From a virus: a stretch of 54,457 nucleotides of DNA. Numbering within the stretch: position 1 is the stretch's first letter; each line of letters starts with the position of its first letter. Made by a program: the position numbers and the translations under genes. Shown here piece after piece: positions 1 to 22,500 of the stretch. Location of the stretch: the UHGV virus genome UHGV-0096558; one strand, written 5' to 3'. The notes under the pieces were generated by a model. That model searched no databases, had not been told where the DNA came from, and saw only the letters and a program-made list of their open reading frames with translations.

Positions 1-145
1 CAACATGTTGAACATATGCACCATTTAGATTTCCTTTATACCCACAATCACGCTCTGCGACACCGAAGTCAAATTCGCGGTTCATCTTGCGATTATATGC
101 TACTTGTTTATGTTCCCATTTTCTCATCCATTCATCGCGTTTCAT
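1..145 (-). CDS. hypothetical protein, N-terminal 48 codons; ORF runs off the left edge
   Basis: ATG at 145 (minus), open to position 1 (MKRDEWMRKWEHKQVAYNRKMNREFDFGVAERDCGYKGNLNGAYVQHV); begins 10 nt after lipoprotein gene stop; frame-compatible with the ORF fragment at 54282-54457. Confidence 0.4.
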   Translation of the reverse strand, partial: MKRDEWMRKWEHKQVAYNRKMNREFDFGVAERDCGYKGNLNGAYVQHV

Positions 146-154
146 GTTTCACCC

Positions 155-814
155 TTAATTCCAGTTGCAAGCGTTTTTTACTTTGTCGATGTGGTTATAA
201 AGACCATCAATGTTAAACACTGCTTTCTCAATGTCGCCAGCTTCCGGCACTACTTCAATGATAAATTGTTTTTCGTTAACCAGATTTTTAATCATTGGAA
301 TGGCTTTTTTGCCGTTCCATAATCCAAGAGCTTTATAGTTAGTTGACCGCCCCCATTCAGTGGCTACAGCTTTGTGATCACCGATCCGGTAGTTAATATA
401 AGTAGTGTCCCCGGCGTCAGTTACACGGTGTGACCATGCTACGAACATTTTTGTTTTATTACCCTGGCAAGCAATTGTTAATACCGGTTTATTCTTATCC
501 TGTGCCTTCAGTGCCGGGAAGGCATCAAGACTTCCGCTGAAATGATCTGCTTTCACAAAAAGGAACACGTTTTTTGTGTCCTGCATATCATCTTTTCTTT
601 CGACCACAAGCCACTGTTTACCAGCTTTTTCTTTTGCTAACTGTGCCTCATATGCGGCTTGTTTTGCTTGTTGTTCCGCAAGCCATTTAGCATTTTTCTC
701 AGCCAATGCTTGTTGTTCTTGAGTGGTCACTATAGGCGCTTTTTCATTATCCTCATTGCAACCAACCAGACCCAATACCGCCGCAATCATTGCCACTTTT
801 GCTAACCGTTTCAT
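155..814 (-). CDS. lipoprotein, 219 aa (signal peptide with lipobox LVGC, coiled-coil segment, C-terminal globular domain); cargo gene
   Basis: ORF track; N-terminus MKRLAKVAMIAAVLGLVGC; RBS GGGGTGGG upstream of ATG at 814. Confidence 0.65.
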   Translation of the reverse strand: MKRLAKVAMIAAVLGLVGCNEDNEKAPIVTTQEQQALAEKNAKWLAEQQAKQAAYEAQLAKEKAGKQWLVVERKDDMQDTKNVFLFVKADHFSGSLDAFPALKAQDKNKPVLTIACQGNKTKMFVAWSHRVTDAGDTTYINYRIGDHKAVATEWGRSTNYKALGLWNGKKAIPMIKNLVNEKQFIIEVVPEAGDIEKAVFNIDGLYNHIDKVKNACNWN

Positions 815-826
815 AACCCACCCCGC

Positions 827-916
827 TTAGTTTTTATTTTTAAGTGATTTTAACATTTCTTCAATGAAATCCGCATAGCGTTCATGTTCGTGGGGACGGT
901 AGTTTACGTTTTTCAT
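827..916 (-). CDS. small ORF, 29 aa (MKNVNYRPHEHERYADFIEEMLKSLKNKN)
   Basis: Manual translation; AGAGGA-like RBS 7-12 nt upstream; stop abuts the lipoprotein gene RBS. Confidence 0.3.
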   Translation of the reverse strand: MKNVNYRPHEHERYADFIEEMLKSLKNKN

Positions 917-995
917 TTTCTTGTCCTCTTTTGCTTCCTCCGGTTTATCCGGTCCTTTTAAATCCCTTTACTCTATCCCTTTCCTTTAGCCTCTT

Positions 996-1035
996 TATAC
1001 AAAATGTATTCGTTGAAGTGAAGCCATTTTGTATA
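996..1035. promoter_or_regulatory. inverted pair of 11-bp motif TATACAAAATG (996-1006) and CATTTTGTATA (1025-1035), 18-bp spacer; in divergent region between minus-strand cargo cassette and tape measure gene
   Basis: Read directly; same motif family recurs across the genome. Confidence 0.4.
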
Positions 1036-1074
1036 AAATAGAGACATAGATCACATCTTGTATGAGGTTAAATC

Positions 1075-3417
1075 ATGGCTACCAGTGTAGGTACAATTTA
1101 TTACGAAGTTGACGCGAAAACTGGTCAACTTCTCGTTGCACAACGACAGGCAGACCAGGCCTTTGACCGTATAGAGCGCGGCGCAAAACAGGCTGACCGC
1201 CAGGTAAACACCCTGAAAACATCCATCAAGGCACTGACCAGGGTTATCCATTTGCTAATTGCTGCCGAGGCTGTGCGCCAATTTATGGATATGGCGGAGC
1301 AAGCAAAAATGCTTCGCGTAAAAATCAAAATGCTTACGGGCGATGCGGAGTCCGCCGGACGGGTTTTCGACGGCCTGAAAGCAATATCCAGGGAAACGGG
1401 GCAAAGCCTGAAGGATACTGGCGAACTATGGCAAGGCCTGGCTATCTCACTGAAGAACACGTCCGCTACGGAAGGGCAATTGCTTAACCTGGTTGGTACG
1501 ATTCAGAAAATGGGGGCGTTGGGCGGTGCGTCAGCGGAGCAGATGTCAAACTCAATGCGTCAATTCCGTCAGTCTATCGACGGAGGCGTGCTTCGTGCTG
1601 AAGAATTCAATAGCCTGTTAGAGAACACCCCGACCATCGTACAGACAATGGCCCGCCAGATGGGGTTATCTATGGGCCAATTCCGCGCAGAAATGCTGGA
1701 AGGCAAGATCACGGCTGAAAGGATGGTTAACGCAATCCAGGCGGCTACGCAGGAAACAAACGAGAAGTTTGCGCAGTTGCCGCGCACATCCGGCATGGCC
1801 CTGAATGAGCTTAAAGTCGAGGTTATGGGGCTTGTTGAGCAGTTGGATGATCTTTTCGGTGTATCCGATACGGTTGTCGCTGGTATCGATCTTGTCACGA
1901 AAGGTGTTAAGGCTTTAGGTGAAGGCGCTGATTTCGCTAAAACCTGCTTTAACACACTGAAGACGGCTGGTAGCGAATTTATTGATATATTTGAAGATGT
2001 CGGAATCAAGGCTGGCGAGGTAGCGGAGAAGATCATCGCAATGGTCACGCCAATCAAAGCACTAATGGACGCCTATAAATGGATGAAGGAGGTTGTAGGG
2101 GAACAAACAGACGAATATAACAGCAACTACGAGAAGAAATACGGTAAGACCGTTGGTAAGGTCATGCAATTACAGGATGATCTGACCGCAGCAATCCAGG
2201 CTACAGAGGAAGCAAGGAAAAATGAACAGAATGCCGCCAATGACGGAGCGATTACCGGATTCGACAAGCCAGTAGACAAACCTAAAAAACAGAAAAAAGA
2301 GAAGAAATCAGAAGCTGATCGGCTTGGTGATAAAGGTATAAGCGTTTCTGACCAGTACAACAAAGACGCCGCCGCTATGCGCAAAGCGTTAGAGAACGGC
2401 AAGGCCATTGATGCTGCATTCGCCCAGGGTAAAATCACCCTCCTTGAGTACCGCGCCGCGCAAAAAGGGATAGGCAAGGAACTGAAGGAAGAATTAGCGC
2501 AAATTCCGGTAGAGGAATTGCGTGATAAATGGGCGCAAATAGTAAGCCCGATGGATCAGCTTAAAGGCGAGGTTGACCCTATTCAGCAGGTCCAGAATGA
2601 ATGGGCAGTCCGTAAGCAAATGCTTATCGACCTGGGCGTTACGGAAGCGCAACAGAAACAGGAACTGTTAGCCTATGAGCAGCAGATCCGCGATCTAAAG
2701 TGGGAACAATGGCAGGCGCAAAGCGACACAAACAGTCTGATAGGTTCTTGTGTCAACGGCCTAAAAGGTGGCATGAGTAATGCGCTTGTTGGTCTGTTAA
2801 ACGGTACTCAATCGCTTAGCGATGTATTCGCAAACTTGGGTAGCAATATTCTTGGTTCAGTAGGGAATAAACTTGCGGAAATTGCTGGCGACTGGATAGC
2901 CGATCAGATCATGATGGAGACACAAAGCAAGGCAACGCAGGCAAGTACAACGGCTGGCGCGGTAGCGGCACAAGGCCAGATTGCAGCGGCGGCGGCCCCG
3001 GCAGCGGCGGCAACAGCGGCGTCAACTGGCGGCGCATGGGCGGCGGCTGGTTCGGCGGCACTTACTGCGATCATGTCGCTGGCGGCGTCAATTTTTGGCG
3101 GCGGGCGATTTAATGGTGGTAGCGTCATTGGTGGCAATATGTACCGCGTAGGGGAACACAACAGGCCGGAGCTATTCCAGACGTCTAACGGAAACCAATA
3201 TATGATTCCGGGCGAGAACGGCAGAGTTATCCCTGGTCGTGATATTGGCGGCGGTGGCGGTATCAGTATGCCTGTCAGTATCACCATTCAGACCACAAAC
3301 GGATTTAGCGACGAGGACAGCCGCAGACTTGAGCAAACAATGGAACGTGTAGCAATGAAAATGATAACAAGGGAATCACAAAGACCGGGCGGAATATTGC
3401 AGCCGCGCCGCAAATAA
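1075..3417 (+). CDS. tail tape measure protein, 780 aa
   Basis: Long helical protein with Ala/Gly-rich C-terminal region and a lambda H-like C-terminal motif; lies immediately upstream of M-L-K-I-J homologues. Confidence 0.75.
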   Translation: MATSVGTIYYEVDAKTGQLLVAQRQADQAFDRIERGAKQADRQVNTLKTSIKALTRVIHLLIAAEAVRQFMDMAEQAKMLRVKIKMLTGDAESAGRVFDGLKAISRETGQSLKDTGELWQGLAISLKNTSATEGQLLNLVGTIQKMGALGGASAEQMSNSMRQFRQSIDGGVLRAEEFNSLLENTPTIVQTMARQMGLSMGQFRAEMLEGKITAERMVNAIQAATQETNEKFAQLPRTSGMALNELKVEVMGLVEQLDDLFGVSDTVVAGIDLVTKGVKALGEGADFAKTCFNTLKTAGSEFIDIFEDVGIKAGEVAEKIIAMVTPIKALMDAYKWMKEVVGEQTDEYNSNYEKKYGKTVGKVMQLQDDLTAAIQATEEARKNEQNAANDGAITGFDKPVDKPKKQKKEKKSEADRLGDKGISVSDQYNKDAAAMRKALENGKAIDAAFAQGKITLLEYRAAQKGIGKELKEELAQIPVEELRDKWAQIVSPMDQLKGEVDPIQQVQNEWAVRKQMLIDLGVTEAQQKQELLAYEQQIRDLKWEQWQAQSDTNSLIGSCVNGLKGGMSNALVGLLNGTQSLSDVFANLGSNILGSVGNKLAEIAGDWIADQIMMETQSKATQASTTAGAVAAQGQIAAAAAPAAAATAASTGGAWAAAGSAALTAIMSLAASIFGGGRFNGGSVIGGNMYRVGEHNRPELFQTSNGNQYMIPGENGRVIPGRDIGGGGGISMPVSITIQTTNGFSDEDSRRLEQTMERVAMKMITRESQRPGGILQPRRK

Positions 3418-3420
3418 ACA

Positions 3421-3452
3421 AAAACCCCGGTACAATGCCGGGGTTATCTTTT
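3421..3452. terminator. bidirectional rho-independent terminator (stem CCCCGG / CCGGGG with flanking A- and T-runs)
   Basis: Hairpin at 3425-3443 between convergent genes (tape measure +, 58-aa ORF -). Confidence 0.6.
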
Positions 3453-3627
3453 AGTTATTCTCAAAACTTGTATATCCTCTTTCAATTTTCCCGCCTCTTA
3501 CACTTCTTGCAAATACTGCATCAGCATGTTTGAAAAATGGTTCAGTATATGTGTCTCCTTTACTATCCATCCATTTCACGATCCAGGCTATACGTTTTAC
3601 ATTGCTTTTATTTGCCGGGTTTTTCAT
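3451..3627 (-). CDS. hypothetical protein, 58 aa (MKNPANKSNVKRIAWIVKWMDSKGD...)
   Basis: Manual translation (below ORF-track size cut-off); GGAGG 9-13 nt upstream of ATG at 3627; stop adjacent to terminator. Confidence 0.5.
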   Translation of the reverse strand: MKNPANKSNVKRIAWIVKWMDSKGDTYTEPFFKHADAVFARSVRGGKIERGYTSFENN

Positions 3628-3746
3628 TTTATTTTCCTCCGCAAATTACAATCTTCCGTTTCTGGCTATATAGCTGCGAGAAAACATCACCAACCAAATA
3701 TTCCAGATCTCCCGCCAGGTGAATTTATCGTCCTCCATATCCCGCC

Positions 3747-4001
3747 TCACTTATGCGCCCCTTTAACCCCGCAGTGGCGGTTATATTCCAGATGATCGAT
3801 GATTAACCAGACTTTGAGATCTTCGCTAAACAGCCGCCAGTCAGGGTTAATATCGAATTTAAAACCGTAACCATCGCGTAACTTTTTGGGGCGCGCCTCT
3901 TTCTTCAAAAATGCTTTAAGCAGTTCCTTACCCTTCTTGATAATCCGGTCCTGTGCGTTTTTCTGTACTTTCAGGTTTTTGTCGATCGCTACCAGTTTCA
4001 T
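3747..4001 (-). CDS. hypothetical protein, 84 aa; cargo gene between tape measure and M
   Basis: ORF track; RBS GGGGGTGAG upstream of ATG at 4001. Confidence 0.6.
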   Translation of the reverse strand: MKLVAIDKNLKVQKNAQDRIIKKGKELLKAFLKKEARPKKLRDGYGFKFDINPDWRLFSEDLKVWLIIDHLEYNRHCGVKGAHK

Positions 4002-4020
4002 AGCTCACCCCCGATTATCC

Positions 4021-4176
4021 TTAATTAAGAGCCTTCAGGAAGAAACCACGGTATTCATCTTCTTTTGCATTCATCATGAATTGACCGTATTTGAATGCAT
4101 CGTCGAAACCCTTAACGATTGCTATTTCCACTTGTTCGAATGCGTTGTTTAGCATTACCACTACATAGCGTTTCAT
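4021..4176 (-). CDS. hypothetical protein, 51 aa (MKRYVVVMLNNAFEQVEIAIVKGFDD...)
   Basis: Internal start of ORF 4021..4227 with strong RBS AAGGAGG; 20 nt upstream of next gene in the same cassette. Confidence 0.5.
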   Translation of the reverse strand: MKRYVVVMLNNAFEQVEIAIVKGFDDAFKYGQFMMNAKEDEYRGFFLKALN

Positions 4177-4242
4177 TTTTGGGCCTCCTTCGTTGGTACT
4201 GCTTTTCTTCTTGCTTTCTATATACATCTTGATGCGTGCTAT

Positions 4243-4330
4243 GTGAAGCCATTTTGTAAACTAGCTATAATCATTGTGATGAAGATCTCATTTTTTGCGT
4301 AGAATCGCGTAAAAGTATATACAAAATGTA
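4243..4330. promoter_or_regulatory. divergent control region carrying GTGAAGCCATTTTGTA (4243-4258, identical 16-mer at 1017-1032) and TATACAAAATGTA (4318-4330), then RBS and M start
   Basis: Read directly. Confidence 0.4.
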
Positions 4331-4346
4331 AATTATAGGGGGATTT

Positions 4347-4700
4347 ATGCCTGAAGTGTTCCGATGGACACCACAAAGAAGCTACAGCGTAAACAGTGAG
4401 CCTAACGTGTCTGTCATTAAGCTGGGGGATGGGTGTGAACAGCGCCAGACAAAAGGGATTAACCCTTTACTTGATAGCTACAGCCTGGTTTTTAAAGGCA
4501 CAAGCGCCGGATGCGGTGACGCCGGAAACGTGGCGCTCCAGGTTGACGCATTTTTAAGGGCGCGTTGCGCGGTCGAGGCGTTTTACTGGACTCCATCAAC
4601 TGACGGGGTGCAAAGGCTTTTTGTATGCAGAAAGTGGAGCATGACGAAAGACGGCCCGGTATGCACGCTAAACGCAACTTTTGAGCAAGTTGTCAATTAA
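4347..4700 (+). CDS. M: minor tail protein M-like
   Basis: 117 aa ending ...ATFEQVVN, as recalled for lambda gpM; position upstream of L. Confidence 0.75.
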   Translation: MPEVFRWTPQRSYSVNSEPNVSVIKLGDGCEQRQTKGINPLLDSYSLVFKGTSAGCGDAGNVALQVDAFLRARCAVEAFYWTPSTDGVQRLFVCRKWSMTKDGPVCTLNATFEQVVN

Positions 4701-4713
4701 TGGAGGTGTCAAT

Positions 4714-4899
4714 ATGTATGCTATTTGTGTAGTGGACCGCACGGGCGCTTTTACATTGTTTGACGACTATGAAATTAAAGATCTTACTGTAAAGGCTGAC
4801 AATGGCGAGATCTGGTATCTTCATGATGTTGGTGACGGGTATGTCGGATGCAGATCGAGAGAGGGTAGGGAAGTGTTATTTTTGCTTGATGGCTTATAA
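4714..4899 (+). CDS. hypothetical protein, 61 aa; inserted between M and L
   Basis: ATG at 4714 with RBS GGAGGTG; ORF track 4681..4899. Confidence 0.5.
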   Translation: MYAICVVDRTGAFTLFDDYEIKDLTVKADNGEIWYLHDVGDGYVGCRSREGREVLFLLDGL

Positions 4900-4903
4900 A
4901 CAC

Positions 4904-4927
4904 GACCCCGCGCGAAGCGGGGTTTAT
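4904..4927. terminator. rho-independent terminator-like hairpin (CCCCGC / GCGGGG) followed by TTTAT
   Basis: Between convergent genes 4714..4899 (+) and 5000..5248 (-). Confidence 0.45.
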
Positions 4928-4999
4928 AGTGTCGATAGCAGAATACATAACAATCCAATGATGATAATAATCACTTCCAAAACGTAATTTTCGCACATC

Positions 5000-5248
5000 T
5001 CATAACGCCCCCTTCAAATATGTCAATCCCTTATCAGTGACGAATGAATGATTTACCTGGTTTTCATCCGTCATGATGATGAATAACTTTTCCTGTAGGT
5101 ATTTTGCTTTCGGGTACAGCGTTAAGCAGACCTGGTACAGTATCCCGCGTTCAATCAGTAAATCAATGAATTCATGTTCATGATAACCGACAAGGCGGGC
5201 GGCCTGCTTCAACGTGTACACATAATTACTGTGATTGCGCCGCGCCAT
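5000..5248 (-). CDS. hypothetical protein, 82 aa (possible helix-turn-helix region)
   Basis: ORF track; RBS AAGGCGG upstream; last gene of a 3-gene minus-strand cassette. Confidence 0.55.
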   Translation of the reverse strand: MARRNHSNYVYTLKQAARLVGYHEHEFIDLLIERGILYQVCLTLYPKAKYLQEKLFIIMTDENQVNHSFVTDKGLTYLKGAL

Positions 5249-5257
5249 ATTGCCGCC

Positions 5258-5611
5258 TTATTTATTGAACGCGCCAAGGTTGTCGATACAGAAATCTTTC
5301 GCCGCTTTTTCGTATTCGCGTTTTGCTTCAGGATCATCTGCCGGGAAACCGTGCGCGTGTATTTCCGGGCAAGACTGATCCATAGAATCCGCAAGGTTTT
5401 CTTTAAAGCAAGCGCCGTTATCAATATCGTATTTCATACATTCCACCTTATCCGGTATTTGCACTGGAGTAATTTTGAATTCTCTGGCGCGTCCGAAGAA
5501 TCGAACAAGTTTTTCTCCTTCCTCGACTGCCATTTCGTAACTGTCATGCAAGCCGTAACCTTCCCAATCATCACTACCAGCCATCCAGACATCAAGACGA
5601 TACTTTTGCAT
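5258..5611 (-). CDS. hypothetical protein, 117 aa
   Basis: In-frame internal ATG of ORF 5258..5689 with RBS GAGGG upstream; acidic protein. Confidence 0.5.
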   Translation of the reverse strand: MQKYRLDVWMAGSDDWEGYGLHDSYEMAVEEGEKLVRFFGRAREFKITPVQIPDKVECMKYDIDNGACFKENLADSMDQSCPEIHAHGFPADDPEAKREYEKAAKDFCIDNLGAFNK

Positions 5612-5615
5612 TTTG

Positions 5616-5780
5616 CTAACCCTCATATTTGACAGGTTTGATCTGGTATCCCAAAACGCGGTCATCCTCCGAAAGTTCAAGCGCATCAATCAGCGCTTCC
5701 CCCTCGTCGTCATACAGAGCGATAACCTTTTCCCTCCCGTCAGTCATGAACACCGTCAACTTCCATAGCTTTTCAGTCAT
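5616..5780 (-). CDS. hypothetical protein, 54 aa (MTEKLWKLTVFMTDGREKVIALYDDEGE...)
   Basis: Internal start of ORF 5616..5900 with GGAGG 6 nt upstream; first gene of cassette. Confidence 0.4.
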   Translation of the reverse strand: MTEKLWKLTVFMTDGREKVIALYDDEGEALIDALELSEDDRVLGYQIKPVKYEG

Positions 5781-5909
5781 CATGCACCTCCGCGCCATTT
5801 TGTTAACTATGCTTCCGTTTGAGTAAAATATACATATTGTAAAAACCGCGATCAATCCATTTTGGTATGATTTAGCGTGACGCAGATCACAAAATGACAA
5901 GGTGAGAAA

Positions 5910-6614
5910 ATGCGCAATATTCCGAGAGAGATGATTATTGATTCCGTCGATGCCGGAGTCGGCGCGGTCATCGACTTATTTGAACTGGACCTGACCCCAC
6001 TTGGCGGCGAGGTTGTCCGCTTCCATTCCGGCGCTAATGGCTATTACGGGAATGTTATCTGGAAGGGTATCGCTTACAACAGCTACCCGATCGAAGTTAG
6101 CGGCTTCGAAATGAAAAACGAGGGGGTATACGCGCGGCCTCAAATGGCAGTAGCCAACATCGGCGGCCTTATTACCGGAATGAATAACGACTTTAACGAC
6201 CTTCGCGGAATGAAAGTTACCCGCCGCCAGGTGGAGGTTAAATACCTGGACGCTGTTAACTTCCCTAACGGCAATCCAGATGCAGATCCTTCTATTGAGG
6301 CGGTATCTGTTTACGTTGTCGAGGCAATGAGTGAAGAAACGGCGGAGCAAGTACAGTACGAACTATCAACGCCAGTAGACGCAGACAAGGCTGTTATACC
6401 TGGGCGCACCATCCTTGCTGACGTTTGCCAGTGGCAATATCGCGGAGACGGTTGCGGATATAGCGGCGGCCCGGTAGCGACTGATAAAGATGCGCCGACC
6501 AGTGATCCAACATTGGATAAATGCAGCCACCGCCTCAGCGGTTGTCGCTTGCGCTTCCCGCGCCCGAATCCGTTACCAATTTCATGTTTCCCCGGATCAA
6601 GCAAGGTGGGCTAA
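5910..6614 (+). CDS. L: minor tail protein L
   Basis: Recognisable similarity to lambda gpL (EIDLT..GGE, ...RRKV..R.LDAVNF.NGN..ADP..., ...W.YRGD.CGYSG..., DKCS..LSGC). Confidence 0.9.
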   Translation: MRNIPREMIIDSVDAGVGAVIDLFELDLTPLGGEVVRFHSGANGYYGNVIWKGIAYNSYPIEVSGFEMKNEGVYARPQMAVANIGGLITGMNNDFNDLRGMKVTRRQVEVKYLDAVNFPNGNPDADPSIEAVSVYVVEAMSEETAEQVQYELSTPVDADKAVIPGRTILADVCQWQYRGDGCGYSGGPVATDKDAPTSDPTLDKCSHRLSGCRLRFPRPNPLPISCFPGSSKVG

Positions 6615-6616
6615 TT

Positions 6617-7348
6617 ATGGCACTTGAAGACAAAATGGTTCGTTATGCCGCCGCTCACCCTCGCGAGGAAGTTTGCGGACTGGTGATAGATAACGATTAT
6701 TTTTACCCGTGCTTAAACATGTCTGAAACGCCCTACAACAGCTTTAAAATTTCGCCGGACGATTACATCAAGGCTGACGAATTGGGCGTCATAACCGCCG
6801 TTTTCCACTCTCACGTTGAAGATATTCCGGTATTGTCGGCGCTGGATCGACAACAACAGGTTATTTCCGGCCTTCCGTGGTTTTTATGTTCCGGTGGCAG
6901 GGTTAGAAAATTCCGCCCGGTAGCGCACCTGTTAGGCCGAAAATTTGAGCACGGAAAAACAGACTGCTACGCGCTTTTCCGGGACGCCTATCACCTTTGC
7001 GGCGTGGATCTGCCGGACTTCGAGCGCCTTGATGGGTGGTGGTTGCATGGTGAAAACCTGTATTTAAAAAACTTGCCGCTAAACGGGTTTTATCAGGTTG
7101 ACGCGCAAAGCATCCAGCCTGGTGACGTGATTATTCGCCAGCCGTTCAAGGGTGCTGATCCATGTCACGCGATGATTTACCTGGGTGATAACACTGTTTT
7201 GCATCATGACAATGCCGGACTGTTAAGTCGCCGCGAGCAGATGCGGCCCGCTTATGTTCGACAAACGCATTCAATATGGAGATCTGACAAATGCTCAAAT
7301 TTAGATTTACGGGCAATCTTCGAAGATATTACGGCAAAGTGTGTTTAA
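6617..7348 (+). CDS. K: tail assembly protein K (MPN/JAB plus NlpC/P60-like domains)
   Basis: ATG at 6617 (MALEDKMVRY...) just after L stop; HSH..D motif and NlpC/P60-like Cys/His region; lambda gpK-like. Confidence 0.85.
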   Translation: MALEDKMVRYAAAHPREEVCGLVIDNDYFYPCLNMSETPYNSFKISPDDYIKADELGVITAVFHSHVEDIPVLSALDRQQQVISGLPWFLCSGGRVRKFRPVAHLLGRKFEHGKTDCYALFRDAYHLCGVDLPDFERLDGWWLHGENLYLKNLPLNGFYQVDAQSIQPGDVIIRQPFKGADPCHAMIYLGDNTVLHHDNAGLLSRREQMRPAYVRQTHSIWRSDKCSNLDLRAIFEDITAKCV

Positions 7349-7821
7349 ACGTTGATACGCCAGCGCAAGGACTTCGCTTATTGACTGCGCAGAATCAGGA
7401 ATTCAAAAAAGCGTTTTTAAACACACCATCACGATTACGGATTGCGGGAAAGGATTATAACGAAAAAACAGCGCCCGCTGCGGTTAATAGCAAATACCCG
7501 GACGGGACCACTGTAATTATTGCGCCAGTAGTGGAAGGTGGGATCGCTGGTATCGGTGTAATTGGCTGGATCATGATTGGTATTTCAGTAGTTAGCGTTG
7601 CGTTTTCCCTCTTTATGTCTCGCAACATGAAGGTAAAAACATCAGCAGAAAGCGCACAGGATAACACCATAACGAATAACACCTACACCAGCGTTGAAAA
7701 CAAGGTAGGCCAGGGTAGACCAGTGCCAATCCTGTTAGGTGAAATGAAAATAGGTTCGAATGTAGGATCGCTTGGTATCGACACAAGCAACAACAAAGAC
7801 GCTCTGGACGTTGTAAGTTAA
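7291..7821 (+). CDS. I: tail assembly protein I
   Basis: Lambda gpI-like; Gly-rich hydrophobic segment then ...ILLGEMKIGS...; overlaps K 3' end. Confidence 0.8.
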   Translation: MLKFRFTGNLRRYYGKVCLNVDTPAQGLRLLTAQNQEFKKAFLNTPSRLRIAGKDYNEKTAPAAVNSKYPDGTTVIIAPVVEGGIAGIGVIGWIMIGISVVSVAFSLFMSRNMKVKTSAESAQDNTITNNTYTSVENKVGQGRPVPILLGEMKIGSNVGSLGIDTSNNKDALDVVS

Positions 7822-7835
7822 TAAAGGGGGTTACT

Positions 7836-10800
7836 ATGGGCGGCGGTGGTGGTAAAGCAAAAACACCAGTTTTATTAAACGATAACTTGTATCATAAGCA
7901 GTTTTATCGCGTCCTGGATATCCTGTCAGAAGGGCCGATTTATGGCCCTGTCAATCAGGCGGCACCGTTAAACTGCGTAATGCTTAATGATACGCCTATA
8001 ACTGACACCGTGGGTAACGCAAGTATCCCCGGCGTTAGTATTGCGTGGCGTCCTGGTAGTCTCGACCAGTCTCCAATCAATGGATTTAACTCCATTGAAT
8101 CGACTGTAATGGTCAATGCACAGGTTAAGCACGATACGCCGATTATACGCACAGTATCAGACAGAAATGTCAATCGTGTACGTCTTAATATTGGCGTTGA
8201 TTCTCTGGTATCGAGCGACAACCAGGGGAACCAGTACGAAACATCCGTACATTTAGCTATAGATATTAAACCTTCATCATCATCGTCATGGACTATAGTT
8301 AAAGATGTAATTATCGGACCGGGTAAAATTAGCGGGGAATACCTTGAATCACACATCATTGATGCGCCGAGTGAGTACCCTTTCGATATTCGCGTTCGCA
8401 GAATTACGGCAGATAGCACCAGCGATCTACTTCAAAACGACACACGCTGGAATAGCTACAGCGAGATCATAGATGACAACCTGTCATATCCTCACACGGC
8501 GGTAGCTGGCTGTGTTATTGATCACGATCAGTATACTGATACACCGACCCGCGCTTATCATCTTCGCGGGCTGATTGTTGACGTGCCGGACAACTATAAC
8601 CCTGAAGCGCGCACGTATTCCGGTTTATGGCTTGGTGGATTTAAAAAGGCGTACACCAATAACCCTGCTTGGCTTTTCCGGTATTTGATTAAAAATGAAC
8701 GCTTTGGCCTTGCACGACAGGCTGGTTATATTGACGTTGATGACGGCGCTTTATACGTGCTTTCTCAATACTGCGACCAGTTGGTTGATGATGGCTACGG
8801 CGGCCTTGAGCCTCGCATGACGCTTAACGCTTACATCACAGAGCAAATGAGCGCCCGCGACTTACTTGATAATATAGCTGGCATGTTCCGTGGTATTGCG
8901 TTATGGGACGGGCAACGTCTTACAGTGATGATTGATGCGCCACAAGATCCGATTGCAACTATCACGAACGCAAATGTCGTAGATGGTGCATTCACCCGTT
9001 CGAGCCTTGCCCGCGCGGAGTGCTATAACGCCGTGATTGTATCCTGGACCGATCCGGGTAACGGTTGGGAACAGTCAAAAGAATACGTTTCTGACGATGA
9101 ACTAATCGCCCGCGACGGCTACAACGAAACCACACTGGAGGCGTTCGGGTGCACGTCTCGCGGACAGGCTTACCGCGCTGGTAAATGGCTAATCGAAACA
9201 GCAAAACGCGAGCCGTCGAAATTTACGTTTAAAATGGCCCGTGACGCCATTCACTTTACACCAGGTGATATCATTGAGATCCTCGACAATAACCGCGCGG
9301 GCGCTCGCTTAGGCGGTCGTATCGTGGCGAACAATGGCAAAGTGATAACGGTCGACAAGGTTGATTCTGAATATATCGCGGCTGGTGACACCATCAGCTT
9401 ACTTGATAGCGATGGTAAATTTAAAAAACACCAGATCACCGGAGTTAACGGAAACAATATTACCCTTGCTGCGGCCCCGGCATGGATTCGCAATGGCACT
9501 GTTTTTGCTGTATCGACTGAAGCAGCAAAACCCGTTTTATGTAGGATCACCAGCGTAGCAGAAACAGAAAATAACAGCGTATACACTATCGAAGCCGCAC
9601 AGCACGACCCTAACAAACAGGCCGTAGTTGATGAAGGCGCAGTCTTCGAAATCAACAACGACACGCTGAATCATTTCCGTGTGCCTAACATTGAAAACCT
9701 CAAGGTAATGAATGTTGGTTCCGAAACCGTTCAGTGCTCCGCGTCGTGGATGACGCAGACCACAACTCACCGTCTGACCTTTGAATTACGTGTTTATAAC
9801 GAAGACAGCAAAGTTGTCGCCAGTTATGAGACGACAGAATTCCGGTATGATTTTAATGGCCTGAATTGCGGTCAATACTCTTTAGGCGTTCGCGCCCGCA
9901 ATGATACCGGTATGAAAGGCGCGGAATCTATCGTTGATCTCGTTATTGGTGCACCTTCAAAACCAATTGGTGTTAACTGGATACCAGGCGTATTTCAGGC
10001 TACTGTGTACCCAATCAGCAAAACAACTCTGACCAGCGATACAAGCTATGAATTCTATTTTGCTGGCGAAACACAAATCACTAATCCGGCATTAGTCACC
10101 ACTAATGCACAATATACCGGACGTGGTTATCAGTGGACGTTCGGCGGAATGAACACGGGCCATACTTATTACGTTTATGTGCGCACGCGTAACGCTTTTG
10201 GTGTATCAGATTTCGTAGAGGCGTCAGGTAAACCAACAGAGGATTTCGATGAAATCAGCGATTACGTAACCAAAGACGTGATGAATTCTGACCAATTTAA
10301 AGGAATGGTTAGCGACATTAAAGATCTTGGCGACCGCACCGACCTTATCGAAAGCGCCACTGACGACCTTAAAACAGCCACTGATAATCTTACCAATATC
10401 ACAAACGGCCTAAGAACTGATACTGACGACCTTATTGCAGAAACAGGGTCAATAAAAGCTGACACAGATACGCTTAAAAAAGACACGGAAGATCTTTATA
10501 AAAAAGTTCAGGAAAACGCCGATGATATCGGACAGCATGAGGTAAGAATTGACTCATTAGAGGTATCAAGTGAAAAAACCGACAGCGAACTGGCGCAGGC
10601 AAAAGCAAGCCTACAAAACGCATCGCTTGCCCTTATTAATAACTCGCTTGCACAGACTAACACCCGCGTAACTCTTACCGCTCAGTACAAGAAAGGTAAA
10701 ACAGAGACGAAAGCGGAAATTGACCGTATTGACAACGTTATCGCTGAAGAGAAAAAAGCGACTGCGGAATCACTGGAAACCATCACGGCAGAGATGAACA

Positions 10801-12275
10801 CGATGGATACCAACCTGAAAGGTCAGATTTCCAATGTTCAGCGTGCAGTAGCTGACGAGGCGAGCGCCCGCGCTGAAGCTATTAGTGGTGTAAACGCATC
10901 GATCACCAACCTTGATAAGAAAACCGACGCCAACGTAAACCGCCTTGATCAAGCTATCGCTGACGAAACCAGCGCCCGGACTCAGGCCGTCAGTGACGTG
11001 AACGCAAGCATCACCACGCTGGACAAGAAAACTGATGCCAGTGTGAAACGACTTGATCAAGCAATCGCAGATGAAACAAGCGCCCGGACTCAGGCCGTCA
11101 GTGACGTGAATGCAAGCATCAGCACGCTTGATAACAAGGTGACAAGCAATGTGACCCGTATCGACAAAGCTATTGCAGATGAGACAAAGGCACGCACAGA
11201 CGCAATAAGCAGCCTTAACTCATCGCTTACCAGTACGATTAATTCGAAAGTATCTGAAGTATCAACAGCACTTTCTACGCATGAAACATCAAGCGCGGAA
11301 AAATTCAGCCAGATCTCTGCATCTTTCGAAGCGGTAAACTCAAGTATCACAGAATGGTCGCAGACCATGACAACGGCGGACGAGGCATTATCAACCAAAA
11401 TTGATCAGTTAACAGTAACCGTTAACGGGAACACAACGGCGATCGAGACAACATCGAAAGCGTTAACCGACTTCAAAGGTAACGTTGATGCGTCATATTC
11501 AATTAAGATTGCCACCGACAACAACGGCAGAAAATACGCAACAGGTATGTCGCTTGGCCTTACTGGTAGCGGTACTGACGTTCAATCGCAGTGTATTTTC
11601 CTTGTTGACCGCTTCGTGTTAATGACTGCCGCCAACGGCACATACCAGACGCCTTTCTATGTCACTAACGGCGCAATGTATGTGCGCGAAGCGTTTATTA
11701 AAGACGCATCGATCACGACTGCAAAAATAGCACAGCAGATTCAATCAACCAACTTTGCTTCCGGTTCCGCTGGGTGGATGATTAACAAAAACGGCAGCGC
11801 GCAATTTAATAACGTAACTGTAAGGGGGACCGTTTACGCAACATCCGGCGAGTTTTCTGGGACCGTTAAAGCTAAAGCATTTGAAGGTGGCATTAGTTCC
11901 GGTACGCAGGGAACAAGAAGTTCCAGCGGGACGATCACAATTAACGTAACCCCAGCAACCCCGAATAGTATGCTATTGCTTTTCGTTTCTGTATACACGG
12001 CTGGCGTGCGCACAGCAAGCGGCGACCATACCGTCACTCTCCATGCGGGAGGTCGTAGTTTTAACGTTCCTCCGTCTTATCTTGCAGGTAGCGGTGTAGC
12101 GTCAACTTACAGGTTCGATTCAACTATAATTATCCCGGTTACAGGGACCAATAAGAGGGCGGTTTCGATATACTTAAGCCAAGTGGGCCACGTATCATTA
12201 ATAAATACAGATATAAGACTTCTCGGCGCTGTATTACTAAACACCTCATTCTCATCAGGTACTTTTGATTTTTGA
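7836..12275 (+). CDS. J: host specificity protein J (central tail fibre / tip attachment), 1479 aa, with inserted coiled-coil repeat region
   Basis: N-terminal region similar to lambda gpJ over roughly 750 aa (e.g. DILSEGPIYGPV, NPAWLFRYL, EPRMTLNAYIT, GCTSRGQAYRAGKWLIE). Confidence 0.9.
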   Translation: MGGGGGKAKTPVLLNDNLYHKQFYRVLDILSEGPIYGPVNQAAPLNCVMLNDTPITDTVGNASIPGVSIAWRPGSLDQSPINGFNSIESTVMVNAQVKHDTPIIRTVSDRNVNRVRLNIGVDSLVSSDNQGNQYETSVHLAIDIKPSSSSSWTIVKDVIIGPGKISGEYLESHIIDAPSEYPFDIRVRRITADSTSDLLQNDTRWNSYSEIIDDNLSYPHTAVAGCVIDHDQYTDTPTRAYHLRGLIVDVPDNYNPEARTYSGLWLGGFKKAYTNNPAWLFRYLIKNERFGLARQAGYIDVDDGALYVLSQYCDQLVDDGYGGLEPRMTLNAYITEQMSARDLLDNIAGMFRGIALWDGQRLTVMIDAPQDPIATITNANVVDGAFTRSSLARAECYNAVIVSWTDPGNGWEQSKEYVSDDELIARDGYNETTLEAFGCTSRGQAYRAGKWLIETAKREPSKFTFKMARDAIHFTPGDIIEILDNNRAGARLGGRIVANNGKVITVDKVDSEYIAAGDTISLLDSDGKFKKHQITGVNGNNITLAAAPAWIRNGTVFAVSTEAAKPVLCRITSVAETENNSVYTIEAAQHDPNKQAVVDEGAVFEINNDTLNHFRVPNIENLKVMNVGSETVQCSASWMTQTTTHRLTFELRVYNEDSKVVASYETTEFRYDFNGLNCGQYSLGVRARNDTGMKGAESIVDLVIGAPSKPIGVNWIPGVFQATVYPISKTTLTSDTSYEFYFAGETQITNPALVTTNAQYTGRGYQWTFGGMNTGHTYYVYVRTRNAFGVSDFVEASGKPTEDFDEISDYVTKDVMNSDQFKGMVSDIKDLGDRTDLIESATDDLKTATDNLTNITNGLRTDTDDLIAETGSIKADTDTLKKDTEDLYKKVQENADDIGQHEVRIDSLEVSSEKTDSELAQAKASLQNASLALINNSLAQTNTRVTLTAQYKKGKTETKAEIDRIDNVIAEEKKATAESLETITAEMNTMDTNLKGQISNVQRAVADEASARAEAISGVNASITNLDKKTDANVNRLDQAIADETSARTQAVSDVNASITTLDKKTDASVKRLDQAIADETSARTQAVSDVNASISTLDNKVTSNVTRIDKAIADETKARTDAISSLNSSLTSTINSKVSEVSTALSTHETSSAEKFSQISASFEAVNSSITEWSQTMTTADEALSTKIDQLTVTVNGNTTAIETTSKALTDFKGNVDASYSIKIATDNNGRKYATGMSLGLTGSGTDVQSQCIFLVDRFVLMTAANGTYQTPFYVTNGAMYVREAFIKDASITTAKIAQQIQSTNFASGSAGWMINKNGSAQFNNVTVRGTVYATSGEFSGTVKAKAFEGGISSGTQGTRSSSGTITINVTPATPNSMLLLFVSVYTAGVRTASGDHTVTLHAGGRSFNVPPSYLAGSGVASTYRFDSTIIIPVTGTNKRAVSIYLSQVGHVSLINTDIRLLGAVLLNTSFSSGTFDF
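10833..11242 (+). repeat. in-frame tandem repeats inside J: two near-identical 108-bp units (10941-11048, 11049-11156) flanked by degenerate copies; exact 32-mer at 10970-11001 and 11078-11109
   Basis: Read directly; encodes repeated motif RLDQAIADETSARTQAVSDVNASIT.LDKKTDA. Confidence 0.7.
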
Positions 12276-12280
12276 TACCA

Positions 12281-12305
12281 GCCCCGCTTCGTGCGGGGTT
12301 TTTTT
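12281..12305 (+). terminator. rho-independent terminator (GCCCCGC / GCGGGG then T7)
   Basis: Immediately after J stop. Confidence 0.7.
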
Positions 12306-12388
12306 ATACGCATTGTAAACTCAAGTTCGTTCTTGTAATGACAAAACGTTAAAATGGTAACGTTAATTAACGAAATGGAGTCATTGCG

Positions 12389-15300
12389 ATGATTTATACA
12401 ACAGGCACAATTGCAATTAGCGGCAATACCTTAACTGGTGTTGGCACTAATTTTACAGCGCCGCTTTCCCTTATCCGTGTAGGCTGTACACTGATCGCCG
12501 TGGGAAACCCGGTGCAAATTTTCTCAATCACAGAGATTAAAAGCGCTACAGAGCTTTCCGTTTACCCTGCCGCAAATCCCGCAATCCCTGCCGGGACAGA
12601 ATTTAGCATCCTGCTTACAGACTCAATTTCCGTCGATGGTCTTGCTCAGGACGTAGCTGAAACACTGCGTTACTACCAGGGCAAGGAAACAGAGATCGCC
12701 GCAGCCGTCGAGTGGTGGAAAGATTTCGGCGGTGATGGTCAGATGGATCAGCTTCTTGCCAACATTCGCGAAGAAACAGCGAAATCAACCGCCAACGCTC
12801 AAAAAACAGAAGCTGACAAGAACACAACCGAAGGTTACAAGAATGCTGCGGCATCATCTGCAACAGCGGCAAAATCATCTCAGGATGCAGCAAAAGCCAG
12901 CGAAACATCAGCCAGCAACAGCAAAACAGCGGCGGCAACCAGCGAAACCAATGCGGCGAAATCAGCAGCCGATGCGCTTAATTATAGAAATCAAGCTCAA
13001 TCCATTGTTGGCAGCAACATTGGCTTAGGTGCATCGCCGCGTGATTGCCCTGACATTTCCGGCAATCCATCCGGTTATATTGGCTTTATGCGCATTATGG
13101 CTGGTGCGAAAGGTTTTCCATCAATCGCATCAGGTGAAAGCAGCCTCACAGGCTTTATTAGCGGAGTTGACGGAAGTCCGACATATGCAGGTATTTTCCA
13201 GGGCTGGGCCTCAAGATCGCTTTATACTTACCGTTGGAGTGAAGGTACAGGCCCGCAATGGACTCGACACGCAAGAAAAGACGAAGTAGATCGCATTTCT
13301 CAAATGAGTGGCGATCAGACGCGCATTTACGCTGGCAACGGTAAAACTTATTTAGAGGTTGGCAATGATCGTGCATGGGGTGTTTATAATAGCGAGACTG
13401 GTCAATGGAAACCGTTAGATCTTGCTCAAGGCGGTACGGCAGGACGTAACGCAGGACAAGCACGCACAAACCTTGAGGTTATGTATGAGAAAAAATCAGA
13501 TCTAAGTTCCACAGATATTAATACGCTTACTGGCGAGTATTCCGGTTTTTATTACCAGGGGTTAAACTCCAACGCTACGTCAGAGCGTGGCTATCCTGTA
13601 TCAAGTGCGGGCGCATTGCTTGTCATCAGAAACAATGCAAACGGTAACGCAGGATGCACGCAGCTTTATTTCCCTTACAATGCCACGACTGGCACATTTT
13701 ATATGCGCCAGTACATTATTATTTCCTCTACGACTGGCTGGGAGTGGACCGCATGGAAGAAATTTCAGTCTCTTGATTTTACTGATAGCCCGCAATTTAC
13801 AAACCTTAATCTTGTAAGATCTTCAGATGTAGCAACTACCGCAGGCGGTATTTTACAAAGCATCCTTAATGATGCATCAGGCGCACAAAGAGCGCGAGCG
13901 CGTTTTTATTCAGAATTCCGTGGCGATGGTAAATCATGGGCCACAATTCACCTACAGAATGGAGATAAAAACCAATACGCAGGATTAAGCGAAGACGGCG
14001 ACTTTACTTTAAATAGCGGTGATTTTATAGGTAGGCGTTTAAGATTAACAGCTAATTTTAATTATCCCGTAGAAATATCAAGCGCTCATCCTACCATCAG
14101 ATTCAACGAAACGGATCGGCCATCAAATACACCTTACTATAGCCTTATCTTTGATGGTGGTAACTGGCGTATTCAGAAAGACGGATATGACGGGACGAAA
14201 ACAAGCTATTCAATGAGCTATAACTATGCAAGGGATGAAATAGAAGTACCTAACCTGAAAGTCAATGCAATTGCAGTACCTACAAACCTTGAACAAACTA
14301 AAACAAATATGCAAATCCCGTTTGCAGGTATTGCGCATTGGGTTGATTACAACGCTCCTACTGGTGCTGAAGCTGGTAAATATTACCCTGTAATTGTCAG
14401 CCATCCTTCATACTATAACGGCGATTTCCTTGTTGAAGTTGCAATGAGAACTAAGTCAATATCTGGCAGTGAAGAGCCTAACTGTAACGCAATTCACTTA
14501 TGGTTGCGTGATGGTGGCTGGTCAGATATGGGTGCGGCTGTATTTGGTCATTATTTCTGTTACGCAAACAATGAAAACGCGATACTTTGCGTGCGCGGTA
14601 CTGATAAAGGTCAGTATCCACATAACGCAATCTATGTTCGCGGTGACGCTTTCCCTATTCGTCTTGCCGTCACGGTTGGCTGTACTGTAACAATACCTAC
14701 AGCAGACTGGAAACCTTCAACAGCGGGCGATAGCCCGACTTATAAATGGGGTATCACTAATTCCTCTGATGGTATTGATTTAGATACTTACGGCATTAGC
14801 AATAACTTACTTGATTTCACATCGAGTGCAACAGGGTTTTATTGCACTGATACATACCGCAATAAATATGGTGATTCTTATCAGGTTATACAATCAAACG
14901 GAACTATACAGCCAGCTAACGGAGTTGCAACATATTTAAATCAAGACTGGAACGCACAACAATCAGACGGAGTAAACAAGTTTAAACCGATTGCTGGTCA
15001 AACGAATACGCCGGAAAATAATGTAGTTTATGGCGGCTTTCATGTTGGCTTTAGCGGTAACTACGCTACTCAATTCGCCGGACGTAATTCAAAATTCTAC
15101 GCCAGAAGTTTTGAGGCCGGAGTAGATAAAGGCTGGTGTCAACTTGCTACGCTTAACGCATCTTCGCAAAGGTGGACTGGATACCAACAATTCAAATCGA
15201 CGGAGTTTTTCGCTGATACTTACACAAGAAAAGTAAGTTTAGCCGTCGCAAATTCAGCGGTAAGAAATGGCGAGCTTTATTTGTGGGGTGCAGAAAGCCG

Positions 15301-15856
15301 TCCGACTGTATTTGAGTACAAGATAAAAGATCCAGACACAAACGCGTCACTTTCATGGGTTTTTTACGCGCAGCAAAACACGGATGATTCTTGTCAATTT
15401 CAGGTTAACGGTGCTGTAAACTGCGTAACAGTAAACCAGTCATCAGACCGAGACTTGAAAGACAATATTCAGGTTATAGGTGATGCTACTGAAGCTATCC
15501 GTAAAATGAACGGGTACACCTACACGCTTAAGGAAAATGGCCTGCCTTACGCTGGCGTTATCGCTCAGGAGGTCATGGAGGCACTACCGGAAGCGGTAGG
15601 ATCGTTTACTCATTACGGTGAAGCATTGCAAGGCCCGACCATTGACGGCAACGAGCTACGCGAAGAAACGCGCTATCTTAATGTTGACTATGCGGCGGTG
15701 ACTGGTTTACTTGTCCAGGTGGCACGCGAAACAGATAACCGCGTCACCGAACTGGAAGAGGAAAACGTCAGCTTACGTGCTAACATTGCCGTCATGGATG
15801 AGCGGATCACAAAACTTGAAGCGCTTGTCAGGAAGTTAACCGGAAGCGAAGAATAA
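12389..15856 (+). CDS. tail fibre protein, 1155 aa, with C-terminal S74-type intramolecular chaperone (autoproteolytic) domain
   Basis: Ala/Ser/Thr-rich repeat region near N-terminus resembling side tail fibre proteins; C-terminal segment ...SSDRDLKDNIQVIGDATEAIRKMNGYTYTLKENG... plus terminal coiled coil typical of endosialidase-type chaperone domains. Confidence 0.8.
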   Translation: MIYTTGTIAISGNTLTGVGTNFTAPLSLIRVGCTLIAVGNPVQIFSITEIKSATELSVYPAANPAIPAGTEFSILLTDSISVDGLAQDVAETLRYYQGKETEIAAAVEWWKDFGGDGQMDQLLANIREETAKSTANAQKTEADKNTTEGYKNAAASSATAAKSSQDAAKASETSASNSKTAAATSETNAAKSAADALNYRNQAQSIVGSNIGLGASPRDCPDISGNPSGYIGFMRIMAGAKGFPSIASGESSLTGFISGVDGSPTYAGIFQGWASRSLYTYRWSEGTGPQWTRHARKDEVDRISQMSGDQTRIYAGNGKTYLEVGNDRAWGVYNSETGQWKPLDLAQGGTAGRNAGQARTNLEVMYEKKSDLSSTDINTLTGEYSGFYYQGLNSNATSERGYPVSSAGALLVIRNNANGNAGCTQLYFPYNATTGTFYMRQYIIISSTTGWEWTAWKKFQSLDFTDSPQFTNLNLVRSSDVATTAGGILQSILNDASGAQRARARFYSEFRGDGKSWATIHLQNGDKNQYAGLSEDGDFTLNSGDFIGRRLRLTANFNYPVEISSAHPTIRFNETDRPSNTPYYSLIFDGGNWRIQKDGYDGTKTSYSMSYNYARDEIEVPNLKVNAIAVPTNLEQTKTNMQIPFAGIAHWVDYNAPTGAEAGKYYPVIVSHPSYYNGDFLVEVAMRTKSISGSEEPNCNAIHLWLRDGGWSDMGAAVFGHYFCYANNENAILCVRGTDKGQYPHNAIYVRGDAFPIRLAVTVGCTVTIPTADWKPSTAGDSPTYKWGITNSSDGIDLDTYGISNNLLDFTSSATGFYCTDTYRNKYGDSYQVIQSNGTIQPANGVATYLNQDWNAQQSDGVNKFKPIAGQTNTPENNVVYGGFHVGFSGNYATQFAGRNSKFYARSFEAGVDKGWCQLATLNASSQRWTGYQQFKSTEFFADTYTRKVSLAVANSAVRNGELYLWGAESRPTVFEYKIKDPDTNASLSWVFYAQQNTDDSCQFQVNGAVNCVTVNQSSDRDLKDNIQVIGDATEAIRKMNGYTYTLKENGLPYAGVIAQEVMEALPEAVGSFTHYGEALQGPTIDGNELREETRYLNVDYAAVTGLLVQVARETDNRVTELEEENVSLRANIAVMDERITKLEALVRKLTGSEE

Positions 15857-15885
15857 GAGGTGATGTGCGAAGAACATTGCCGCGC

Positions 15886-15916
15886 GAAACGAGGCTAACG
15901 CCTCGTTTCTTTTTGC
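15886..15916 (+). terminator. rho-independent terminator (AAACGAGGC / GCCTCGTTT then T-run)
   Basis: After tail fibre gene. Confidence 0.65.
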
Positions 15917-16182
15917 GTACCATTGTGTGTACCATATTATCTTAAGGTTAAATGAGATATGAATAAAATAATGATTTATATATCGTTTTTGCCACTTTGC
16001 ATAATGTCTCTTTCTAATGCTACATACCGCGCACAAGCGTAAACATACGCAAGCAAAATCACCCCTAACACCATGAATTTAGTAGATTTACTTGTTTTCG
16101 CTGTAAACAAGCGCGCTTTTGCGTTATATTGCGTAAACCATGATTTGTGTACCAGGTTGTGCACCAAATAAGGGGGGCGATT

Positions 16183-17403: not shown

Positions 17404-17576
17404 TAACGATATACAGGGCGCGACGTAGTTGATAATTCGTGAAGCGGTTCAGGAAATGGTGTACCTGCCGCTTCCCATTTCATTTTCCATACTCTGAAAG
17501 TTGTCCTACTTATTCCGCCGAGCATTTCCCTGATCCGTGCCGTGGTCAATAATAATGTGGCTGTTTTATTCATCAC
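17343..17576 (-). CDS. AlpA/Xis-like helix-turn-helix regulator or excisionase
   Basis: ...ARIREMLGGISRTTFRVW... motif; start overlaps stop of upstream gene (ATGA); 3' end overlaps int 3' end antisense by about 60 bp. Confidence 0.55.
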   Translation of the reverse strand: MMNKTATLLLTTARIREMLGGISRTTFRVWKMKWEAAGTPFPEPLHELSTTSRPVYRYQDVMQFFKSVGLLSDTDKT

Positions 17577-18220
17577 TTATCACCAGTATATTCAACGTGC
17601 CCGATACATCCATCAATAATTGCTTGCGCCATATTGCGATAATCGCACGAAAAATCATTGTCATGGTTAAAGTCAATCTCTTTTGCTGCGTCTTCACCCA
17701 TAACATTGATAGCAAGTGCAAACGCGATTTCAGCAAGTGCTTTTTCTTTCGGATCAATGTATAAATAATAATTATAAAAACCCCATTCAATAGCATTTTC
17801 TTTCTGTATACTGCCTTTTTCTGTGTATACCCCGTATTTATCACCGATAAATTTAAACATTAAAATCCCAATGTGATAGCCATCAGGATAATAACAATCA
17901 AGCCACACGCCGCACGGAGGCTTTTCTCCTGGCTTCCATTCCGTAACTTCCGACACATCGCAATCATGGCGCTCATCTTCGATTAATTCATCAATAATTT
18001 CGCTTTCTTTATTCATGCCGTCATCATCCATTTCAGAGTAACGCACAAAGCGCCACGTATTAGCCATCAGCGTATAAGATTCACCGCCTACCTTAGATCC
18101 GGCGTAATACTCCGTCCCGAAATCGTAATAACTTGAAAACGTGGTTACTTCAAAAGGCTGAATATCACCACGGAAGCGGTGGAACATTGCGCCTATTGCA
18201 AAAGGGGTTTTCTTCGTCAT
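17573..18220 (-). CDS. hypothetical protein, 215 aa, acidic
   Basis: ORF track; translationally coupled to flanking genes. Confidence 0.6.
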   Translation of the reverse strand: MTKKTPFAIGAMFHRFRGDIQPFEVTTFSSYYDFGTEYYAGSKVGGESYTLMANTWRFVRYSEMDDDGMNKESEIIDELIEDERHDCDVSEVTEWKPGEKPPCGVWLDCYYPDGYHIGILMFKFIGDKYGVYTEKGSIQKENAIEWGFYNYYLYIDPKEKALAEIAFALAINVMGEDAAKEIDFNHDNDFSCDYRNMAQAIIDGCIGHVEYTGDK

Positions 18221-18221
18221 A

Positions 18222-19043: not shown

Positions 19044-19052
19044 AATTCCCCC

Positions 19053-19849: not shown

Positions 19850-19892
19850 CAGAAAGCGGTCAACTTTCCGGTAAGCCGTCTGCTCAAGTTAA

Positions 19893-21308: not shown

Positions 21309-21326
21309 TATGGCATCGCCTCCGGT

Positions 21327-22469: not shown

Positions 22470-22500
22470 TTTGTATATTCATTGACAGCAAACAATCTCT

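Follow-up and report, generated by a model that had tools for sequence, protein, structure and literature searches.

Genes at the edges of the window

The window analysed here is the whole stretch of 54,457 nucleotides of the viral genome UHGV-0096558, numbered from its first letter. Around the point where its end meets its start we find the following features, given in the order in which they lie on the joined sequence:

53579..54256, plus strand: DUF6246 protein, 225 aa (Pfam DUF6246, 1e-53), the last structural gene before the window end.
54248..54264, both strands: bidirectional terminator-like hairpin GCCCGG-TAGAT-CCGGGC, with T-runs on both strands.
54282..54457, minus strand: 3' part of a split gene (bases 2-3 of codon 49, codons 50-106 and the stop TAA at 54284-54282).
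1..145, minus strand: 5' part of the split gene (codons 1-48 and base 1 of codon 49).
155..814, minus strand: gene for a VasI/TagO-like lipoprotein of 219 aa with the lipobox LVGC; it precedes the 106-aa gene and has the same orientation.
827..916, minus strand: predicted small ORF of 29 aa, a gene call in public contigs, mapped by exact match; first in the cassette.
1075..3417, plus strand: tape measure protein, 780 aa (Pfam TMP_3, 3.3e-49), the first structural gene after the window start.

The minus-strand frame that begins with the ATG at 145-143 comprises 48 codons, the last of which ends at position 2, and leaves position 1 over. Positions 54457-54456 complete this spare base to a GGC codon (Gly49), after which 57 further codons lead to Ala106 at 54287-54285 and to a TAA stop, which appears as TTA at 54282-54284 on the plus strand. 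The joined ORF (145..1 followed by 54457..54282) comprises 106 amino acids and a stop in 321 nt, and the two remaining minus-strand frames across the join are stop-rich and closed. This reading of both edges agrees with the earlier note, which had joined the two fragments in frame through a single GGC codon into an ORF of 106 codons. The 5' part is annotated as a truncated 48-aa gene at the start of one assembled contig, NODE_529, while a single intact 106-aa gene is called in another, k119_85979. The edge fragments are one gene and are to be annotated as such.

Gene order is likewise unbroken over the junction, as had been claimed: tail tube, DUF6246, then on the opposite strand the 106-aa gene, the VasI/TagO-like lipoprotein gene and the 29-aa ORF, and finally the tape measure gene. 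An E. coli prophage and independent contigs share this order. The DUF6246 gene occupies the same position in all relatives, and its product is a putative tail assembly chaperone, a name that rests on this position and on a sub-threshold match to Phage_TAC_6 (E = 0.095). The tape measure gene is annotated as such in the phages MagusPhagus and mEp021 and in the prophage of E. coli M1/5; mEp021 (MH706966) is the archetype of the mEpimmI group described by Negrete-Mendez et al. 2025 (PMC11893012).

Identity of the joined protein

A search for the joined protein in related phages, proposed earlier as a check, was successful: the product is identical at 106 of 106 positions to WP_001703223.1, which RefSeq annotates in E. 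coli M1/5 as a single CDS of 321 nt. Among 5.8 billion proteins the family forms only three clusters, all of them exactly 106 aa long and 72-99% identical over their full length. The genes of all members occupy one and the same slot, on the opposite strand between those for tape measure and DUF6246, and Logan contigs with 72-84% identical homologues likewise span the junction.

These observations bear on whether the frame match might have arisen by chance, the window being an incomplete linear fragment whose edge ORFs come from two unrelated genes. When joins were simulated on this genome, 23% of the random chimeric ones were equally open on both sides (at least 48 stop-free codons in one frame on either side), compared with 55% of truly contiguous positions, and the frame match by itself carries a likelihood ratio of only ~2.4; the earlier note was right to call it weak evidence on its own. 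A chance match is contradicted by the complete agreement of the joined protein with one annotated CDS, by the constant length of its family, and by the junction DNA itself, which one chromosome, six IMG/VR contigs and several ENA/Logan contigs carry without a break. By these sequence comparisons chance is already refuted as an explanation, and we give it a negligible probability.

Source contig and circular map

The SPAdes contig NODE_529_length_54512 (ENA ERZ1303395, also at JGI) starts with window base 1 and matches the stretches 1-2314 and 52079-54457 of the window letter for letter. After base 54457 it continues for 55 more nt that are identical to window 1-55, and since 54,512 - 55 = 54,457, the window is NODE_529 minus its k-mer overlap. 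A MEGAHIT contig, k119_85979 (ERZ27272234), measures 54,576 nt, that is 54,457 + 119, and runs from window 25032 to 54457 and on from 1 to 25150; over the junction, 3,678 nt of it match window 52079..54457 plus 1..1299 at 100% identity. A second MEGAHIT contig, k127_57810 (ERZ917691), measures 54,584 nt, or 54,457 + 127, and starts at window 10583, and a Logan contig of 54,377 nt starts at window 11081. The k127 overlap was deduced from size and start point; for k119_85979 the end was read and the start deduced from coordinate offsets.

The overlaps match the k in the names of both MEGAHIT contigs, and 55 is a common SPAdes k, as would apply to NODE_529. Overlaps that scale with the k of the assembler, together with break points that differ, point to a circular assembly graph and not to a fixed terminal repeat. 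Terminal overlap of k-mer size is the 'DTR' criterion of completeness in CheckV-type tools and in IMG/VR. In the window itself we found no terminal direct repeat; its ends abut flush.

The Logan contig is 80 nt below unit length and breaks at 11000/11081, within repeats of the gene for the J-like central tail fibre (7836-12275). These repeats, at 10851-11174, are three tandem, diverged copies of a 108-nt (36-codon) unit.

The earlier note had proposed two further points to be checked, the topology of the source record and continuity across the junction. The source closes on itself, through the 55-nt repeat of NODE_529, and the k119 and k127 contigs are other rotations of the same circle from other samples. 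Continuity, for which contigs and a chromosome serve as a proxy, is found at 100% identity inside k119_85979. It is found again, base-exact, in the M1/5 prophage: window 46067-54457 corresponds to bases 31353-22977 of the extracted region and window 1-827 to bases 22976-22150, which makes the last and first bases of the window adjacent. Six IMG/VR contigs also contain the exact 49-nt junction string, and in each of them a single HSP covers the junction. A search of genome_contigs with the exact junction 49-mer gave no match. The exact attP 49-mer gave no match in IMG/VR, and the window itself is therefore not in that collection. Exact-protein look-ups led to the assemblies described here; look-ups with the highly conserved tail assembly protein I and N-like protein matched chromosomal prophages only.

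The circle could in principle be an artefact of assembly, arising from false closure via a repeat or from two related phages collapsed into one chimera. Several mEpimmI variants are often present in one metagenome, and three IMG/VR contigs that share the junction string come from a single sample, 3300045988. Against such an origin, two assemblers working at three k values recovered the 54,457-nt unit from at least three sample accessions, and the sampled stretches are 100% identical. Moreover, the sequence holds no long internal repeat that could have led to false closure, and its gene order and length match those of isolate genomes. We consider an artefact extremely improbable.

The best explanation is that a gut-metagenome contig, whose assembly graph closed on itself, was opened by the assembler at an arbitrary point. 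This opening fell inside the 321-nt minus-strand accessory gene between the genes for DUF6246, in the chaperone position, and tape measure; trimming of the 55-nt k-mer overlap then left the two gene halves at the window edges, hence the in-frame join. A gene split by linearising a circular contig is a routine by-product of record storage.

Attachment site, gene content and completeness

Two features concern integration:

16004..16024 (approximate), no strand assigned: attP core, located by aligning the window with both prophage ends of strain MFDS1019527.
16183..17403, plus strand: tyrosine integrase, 406 aa as called (Pfam Arm-DNA-bind_3 and Phage_integrase; phrog_1), a gene call.

The left arm of attP corresponds to the tail-fibre-side arm of the prophage and the right arm to the integrase-side arm, as seen in the lysogen at the start of mppA. 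In the window both arms lie side by side and attP is intact; in the lysogen MFDS1019527 they lie ~52 kb apart, beside mppA and mpaA. The open frame of the integrase begins at a GTG at 16147. The start of mppA is the type III integrase site of the mEpimmI group (PMC11893012), and the integrase and att site of the window match type III.

In the left phage arm, 15959-16024 on the plus strand encodes MNKIMIYISFLPLCIMSLS... in frame with the attP core, and in lysogen MFDS1019527 the annotated mppA CDS begins inside phage DNA. The phage therefore seems to give MppA a replacement start and signal peptide on integration.

The window could have been a prophage, cut from a chromosome or from a host-flanked contig and then re-ordered, in which case the join would be an artefact of extraction; the close relatives are indeed known mostly as E. 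coli prophages (PMC11893012). Lysogens, however, open at attP, between the tail fibre and integrase genes, and it is precisely there that the window is uninterrupted, with no host gene. Matches to E. coli chromosomes end at the att core: towards the tail fibre gene they stop at ~15940, and towards the integrase gene they begin again at ~16004. Four assemblies of ~54.4-54.6 kb, moreover, contain no host DNA and have different start points. An origin by prophage extraction is thus very hard to credit. The finding named earlier as refuting a closed genome, namely host DNA or some other continuation beyond either edge, was not made; an intact attP was found instead, and no host gene in the window.

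The modules present comprise the integrase, an O-like initiator, a DnaB-like helicase, a CI-like repressor with HTH_3 and Peptidase_S24 domains, TerS and TerL, portal, a Mu-F-like protein, capsid and tail genes, and lysis genes that were assigned by alignment to annotated relatives. Scans for tRNA genes and with Rfam found nothing. The map is circular, its unit length is 54,457 bp, the junction is identical in the contigs compared, attP is intact and host DNA is absent. Contig overlaps, junction identity, intact attP and lack of host DNA together bear out the proposal that this is a complete phage genome with a circular map. We are highly confident that the window is the complete, unit-length (54,457 bp), circle-assembling genome of a temperate siphophage of the mEpimmI group, linearised at an arbitrary point.

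Two further observations concern individual genes. At 24001-24111 the gene for the O-like initiator (23392-24390, minus strand) contains, in its 5' part, about four copies of an iteron-like direct repeat, GGTTGCT[C/T]T[C/G]TGCCACTACC; by analogy with lambda, these repeats are likely to be the replication origin. The gene at the portal position of the M1/5 prophage (NZ_CP053296.1 2704898-2706271) is named 'anti-CBASS protein Acb1 family protein' in RefSeq, and its counterpart in the window (46127-47521) scores as a portal (Phage_portal_3, phrog_146). The Acb1-family name may be either a naming quirk or something worth attention.

Packaging and virion ends

The packaging genes are the following:

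44103..46069, plus strand: small (Sf6-like) and large terminase genes (Pfam Sf6_terminase, 1.3e-37, and Terminase_6C, 2e-13; phrog TerS and TerL); a pac site would be expected close to them.

Sf6, P22 and T1 are phages with headful (pac) packaging. The window also encodes a Mu-F/SPP1 gp7-like head protein, of a kind typical of pac phages. Distant relatives of TerL include proteins of T1-like phages and mycobacteriophages, with ~30% similarity over half its length to T1-type TerL; among solved terminase structures TerL had no match at E of 0.01 or below. From the Sf6-type TerS, the Terminase_6C domain of TerL, the Mu-F-like protein and the distant T1-like relationship of TerL, we infer that headful packaging, and with it terminally redundant and circularly permuted virion DNA, is the probable mode. 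Such DNA would naturally assemble as a circle. We stress that cos ends, short direct terminal repeats and replicative or excised prophage circles give a circular graph too, so that the assemblies do not prove physical permutation.

The physical ends may instead be fixed, as cos ends or as a short exact terminal repeat, with the circle formed by ligation or by collapse of the repeat; the window edges would still be arbitrary. HNH endonuclease genes are often linked with cos packaging in HK97-like phages, and some relatives of the window carry such genes. In mEp021, however, they lie in the replication and tail regions and not beside the terminase, and the Sf6-family TerS, the nuclease domain and T1-like distant relatives of TerL and the gp7-like protein all speak against fixed ends. 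The assemblies cannot separate the two modes, and the published description of the mEpimmI group reports neither packaging mode nor termini (PMC11893012). Fixed ends are in our judgement unlikely, though they retain an appreciable share of the probability, and headful packaging remains the mode that we favour.

The accessory cassette

On the minus strand the cassette between the DUF6246 and tape measure genes begins with the 29-aa ORF (916-827), continues with the VasI/TagO-like gene (814-155) and ends with the 106-aa gene. The predicted hairpin at 54248-54264, which comes from a consensus scan only and was placed on the window through an exact contig match, lies between the convergent DUF6246 and 106-aa genes and is common to both.

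The product of 155-814 matches Pfam VasI at 5.2e-16 (59.3 bits versus a cut-off of 26.5) and its counterpart in M1/5 is named 'TagO' by PGAP. It also matches phrog_1848 (6e-57), a phage family of unknown function, from which it follows that this VasI-like lipoprotein family recurs in phages. No T6SS genes were found near the gene, whose location is an accessory slot of the phage tail module.

The 106-aa protein is without a Pfam or PHROG family, and its matches to PDB sequences are insignificant (E of at least 0.4). Apart from the 106-aa family itself, a profile search against 1.84 billion representatives gave a single protein, of 4,834 aa, which we rejected as spurious: it consists of 46 near-identical, low-complexity, Gly/Ala/Val-rich repeats of ~105 aa, and it reached E = 3e-37 against the profile by adding up weak repeat matches, so that E-values from this search are not to be taken literally. 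The AlphaFold model of the 106-aa protein has a mean pLDDT of 45, too low for a fold search.

The content of the slot varies, with different small genes there in MagusPhagus, mEp554 and mEp021. One 106-aa homologue is flanked by genes for proteins of 160 aa and 124 aa and not by a VasI-like gene; the orphan thus occurs in some relatives without this neighbour, which weakens the idea of an obligate pair. The 106-aa gene is an orphan in a variable accessory-gene slot, and our best guess is that it is an accessory gene expressed in the lysogen. Together with the VasI/TagO-like gene it would most likely form a lysogen-expressed accessory ('moron') cassette with its own terminator. One might speculate that a self-terminated cassette expressed by the prophage alters the envelope of the lysogen, for instance by protecting against or modulating T6SS attack or by superinfection exclusion; we regard this as a long shot. 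If it were true, the 106-aa orphan would be the founding member of a new family with an accessory or defence role.

Reverse-oriented small genes are not confined to the junction. Three such islands, all on the minus strand, interrupt the plus-strand tail module: 54282..916 (wrapping around the junction), 3451-4227, which separates the tape measure gene from the minor tail gene at 4347-4700, and about 4784-5689, between this minor tail gene and the gene for tail protein L. They include genes for a protein with a ParE-like toxin domain (3747-4001) and a fragment with a KilAC antirepressor domain (5000-5248), and their content differs between relatives.

Significance and comparison with known systems

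Given a complete genome, the gene content can be read as a full inventory, and neither edge of the window is a biological terminus. The value of this result is mainly one of bookkeeping, and no open question is touched by it: the mEpimmI group has been published, the exact sequence is present in public assemblies and the joined protein is in RefSeq, so that what we describe is already known. What the window adds is one more genome in free-phage form, with attP intact and an mppA-type integrase, for a recently described group of gut coliphages.

As a record, the window resembles other circular metagenome contigs recognized by the DTR criterion, with the same k-size overlaps (55, 119 and 127), an arbitrary start and a gene split at the ends. 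It differs from them in being the trimmed form, and there is otherwise nothing of note. In its packaging genes it is like Sf6, P22 and T1 in that TerS belongs to the Pfam Sf6_terminase family and TerL is distantly T1-type; there is no close sequence kinship to these phages and no match to a solved structure.

The prophage of E. coli M1/5 (NZ_CP053296.1, about 2.683-2.738 Mb, at ydaM/dgcM) encodes an identical 106-aa protein and the same TagO-like gene, and its junction region is contiguous and 97% identical. In contrast to the window, it lies integrated at ydaM and has an integrase of type Ia; its J and tail fibre genes differ, and it covers ~85% of the window.

MagusPhagus (PP925836.1, 54,396 bp) is the closest isolate genome and covers 89% of the window in one colinear rotation. 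Identity is mostly 91-94% in the early, head and packaging regions, with TerL 98.6% identical, but only ~83% in the tail region, and the integrase/att region is distinct. MagusPhagus carries a different gene, of 137 aa, in place of the 106-aa and TagO-like genes of the window. Its record was opened at the end of the repressor gene, and its own ends meet between window positions 25347 and 25348.

The authors who described the mEpimmI group retrieved its members by BLASTn, requiring coverage of 60% or more and identity of 70% or more to mEp021 (PMC11893012); Nus-dependent growth and immunity group I are its experimental phenotype. By this measure the window falls within the group, mEp021 covering 78.5% of it at a mean identity of 83.9%, and the syntenic core modules of the group, among them a tyrosine integrase of types I-IV with its att site, a CI-like repressor and an N-like antiterminator, are present as judged by colinearity with mEp021 and MagusPhagus, by the domains of the repressor and by the type III integrase/attP; the 50-gene core of the group was compared at the level of modules. 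At 54.5 kb the window lies within the 53.0-54.7 kb of the group, and it is colinear after rotation with mEp021, which has 54,655 bp. The shared order is int, replication, CI-like repressor, N-like, Erf/SSB, Nin, Q-like, lysis, TerS/TerL, portal, head, tail, J and fibre. It differs in two points: records of the mEp phages open at attP and follow the prophage order, whereas the window is cut inside an accessory gene; and between the DUF6246 and tape measure genes the mEp phages carry other accessory genes, mEp021_63 and mEp554_92/93.
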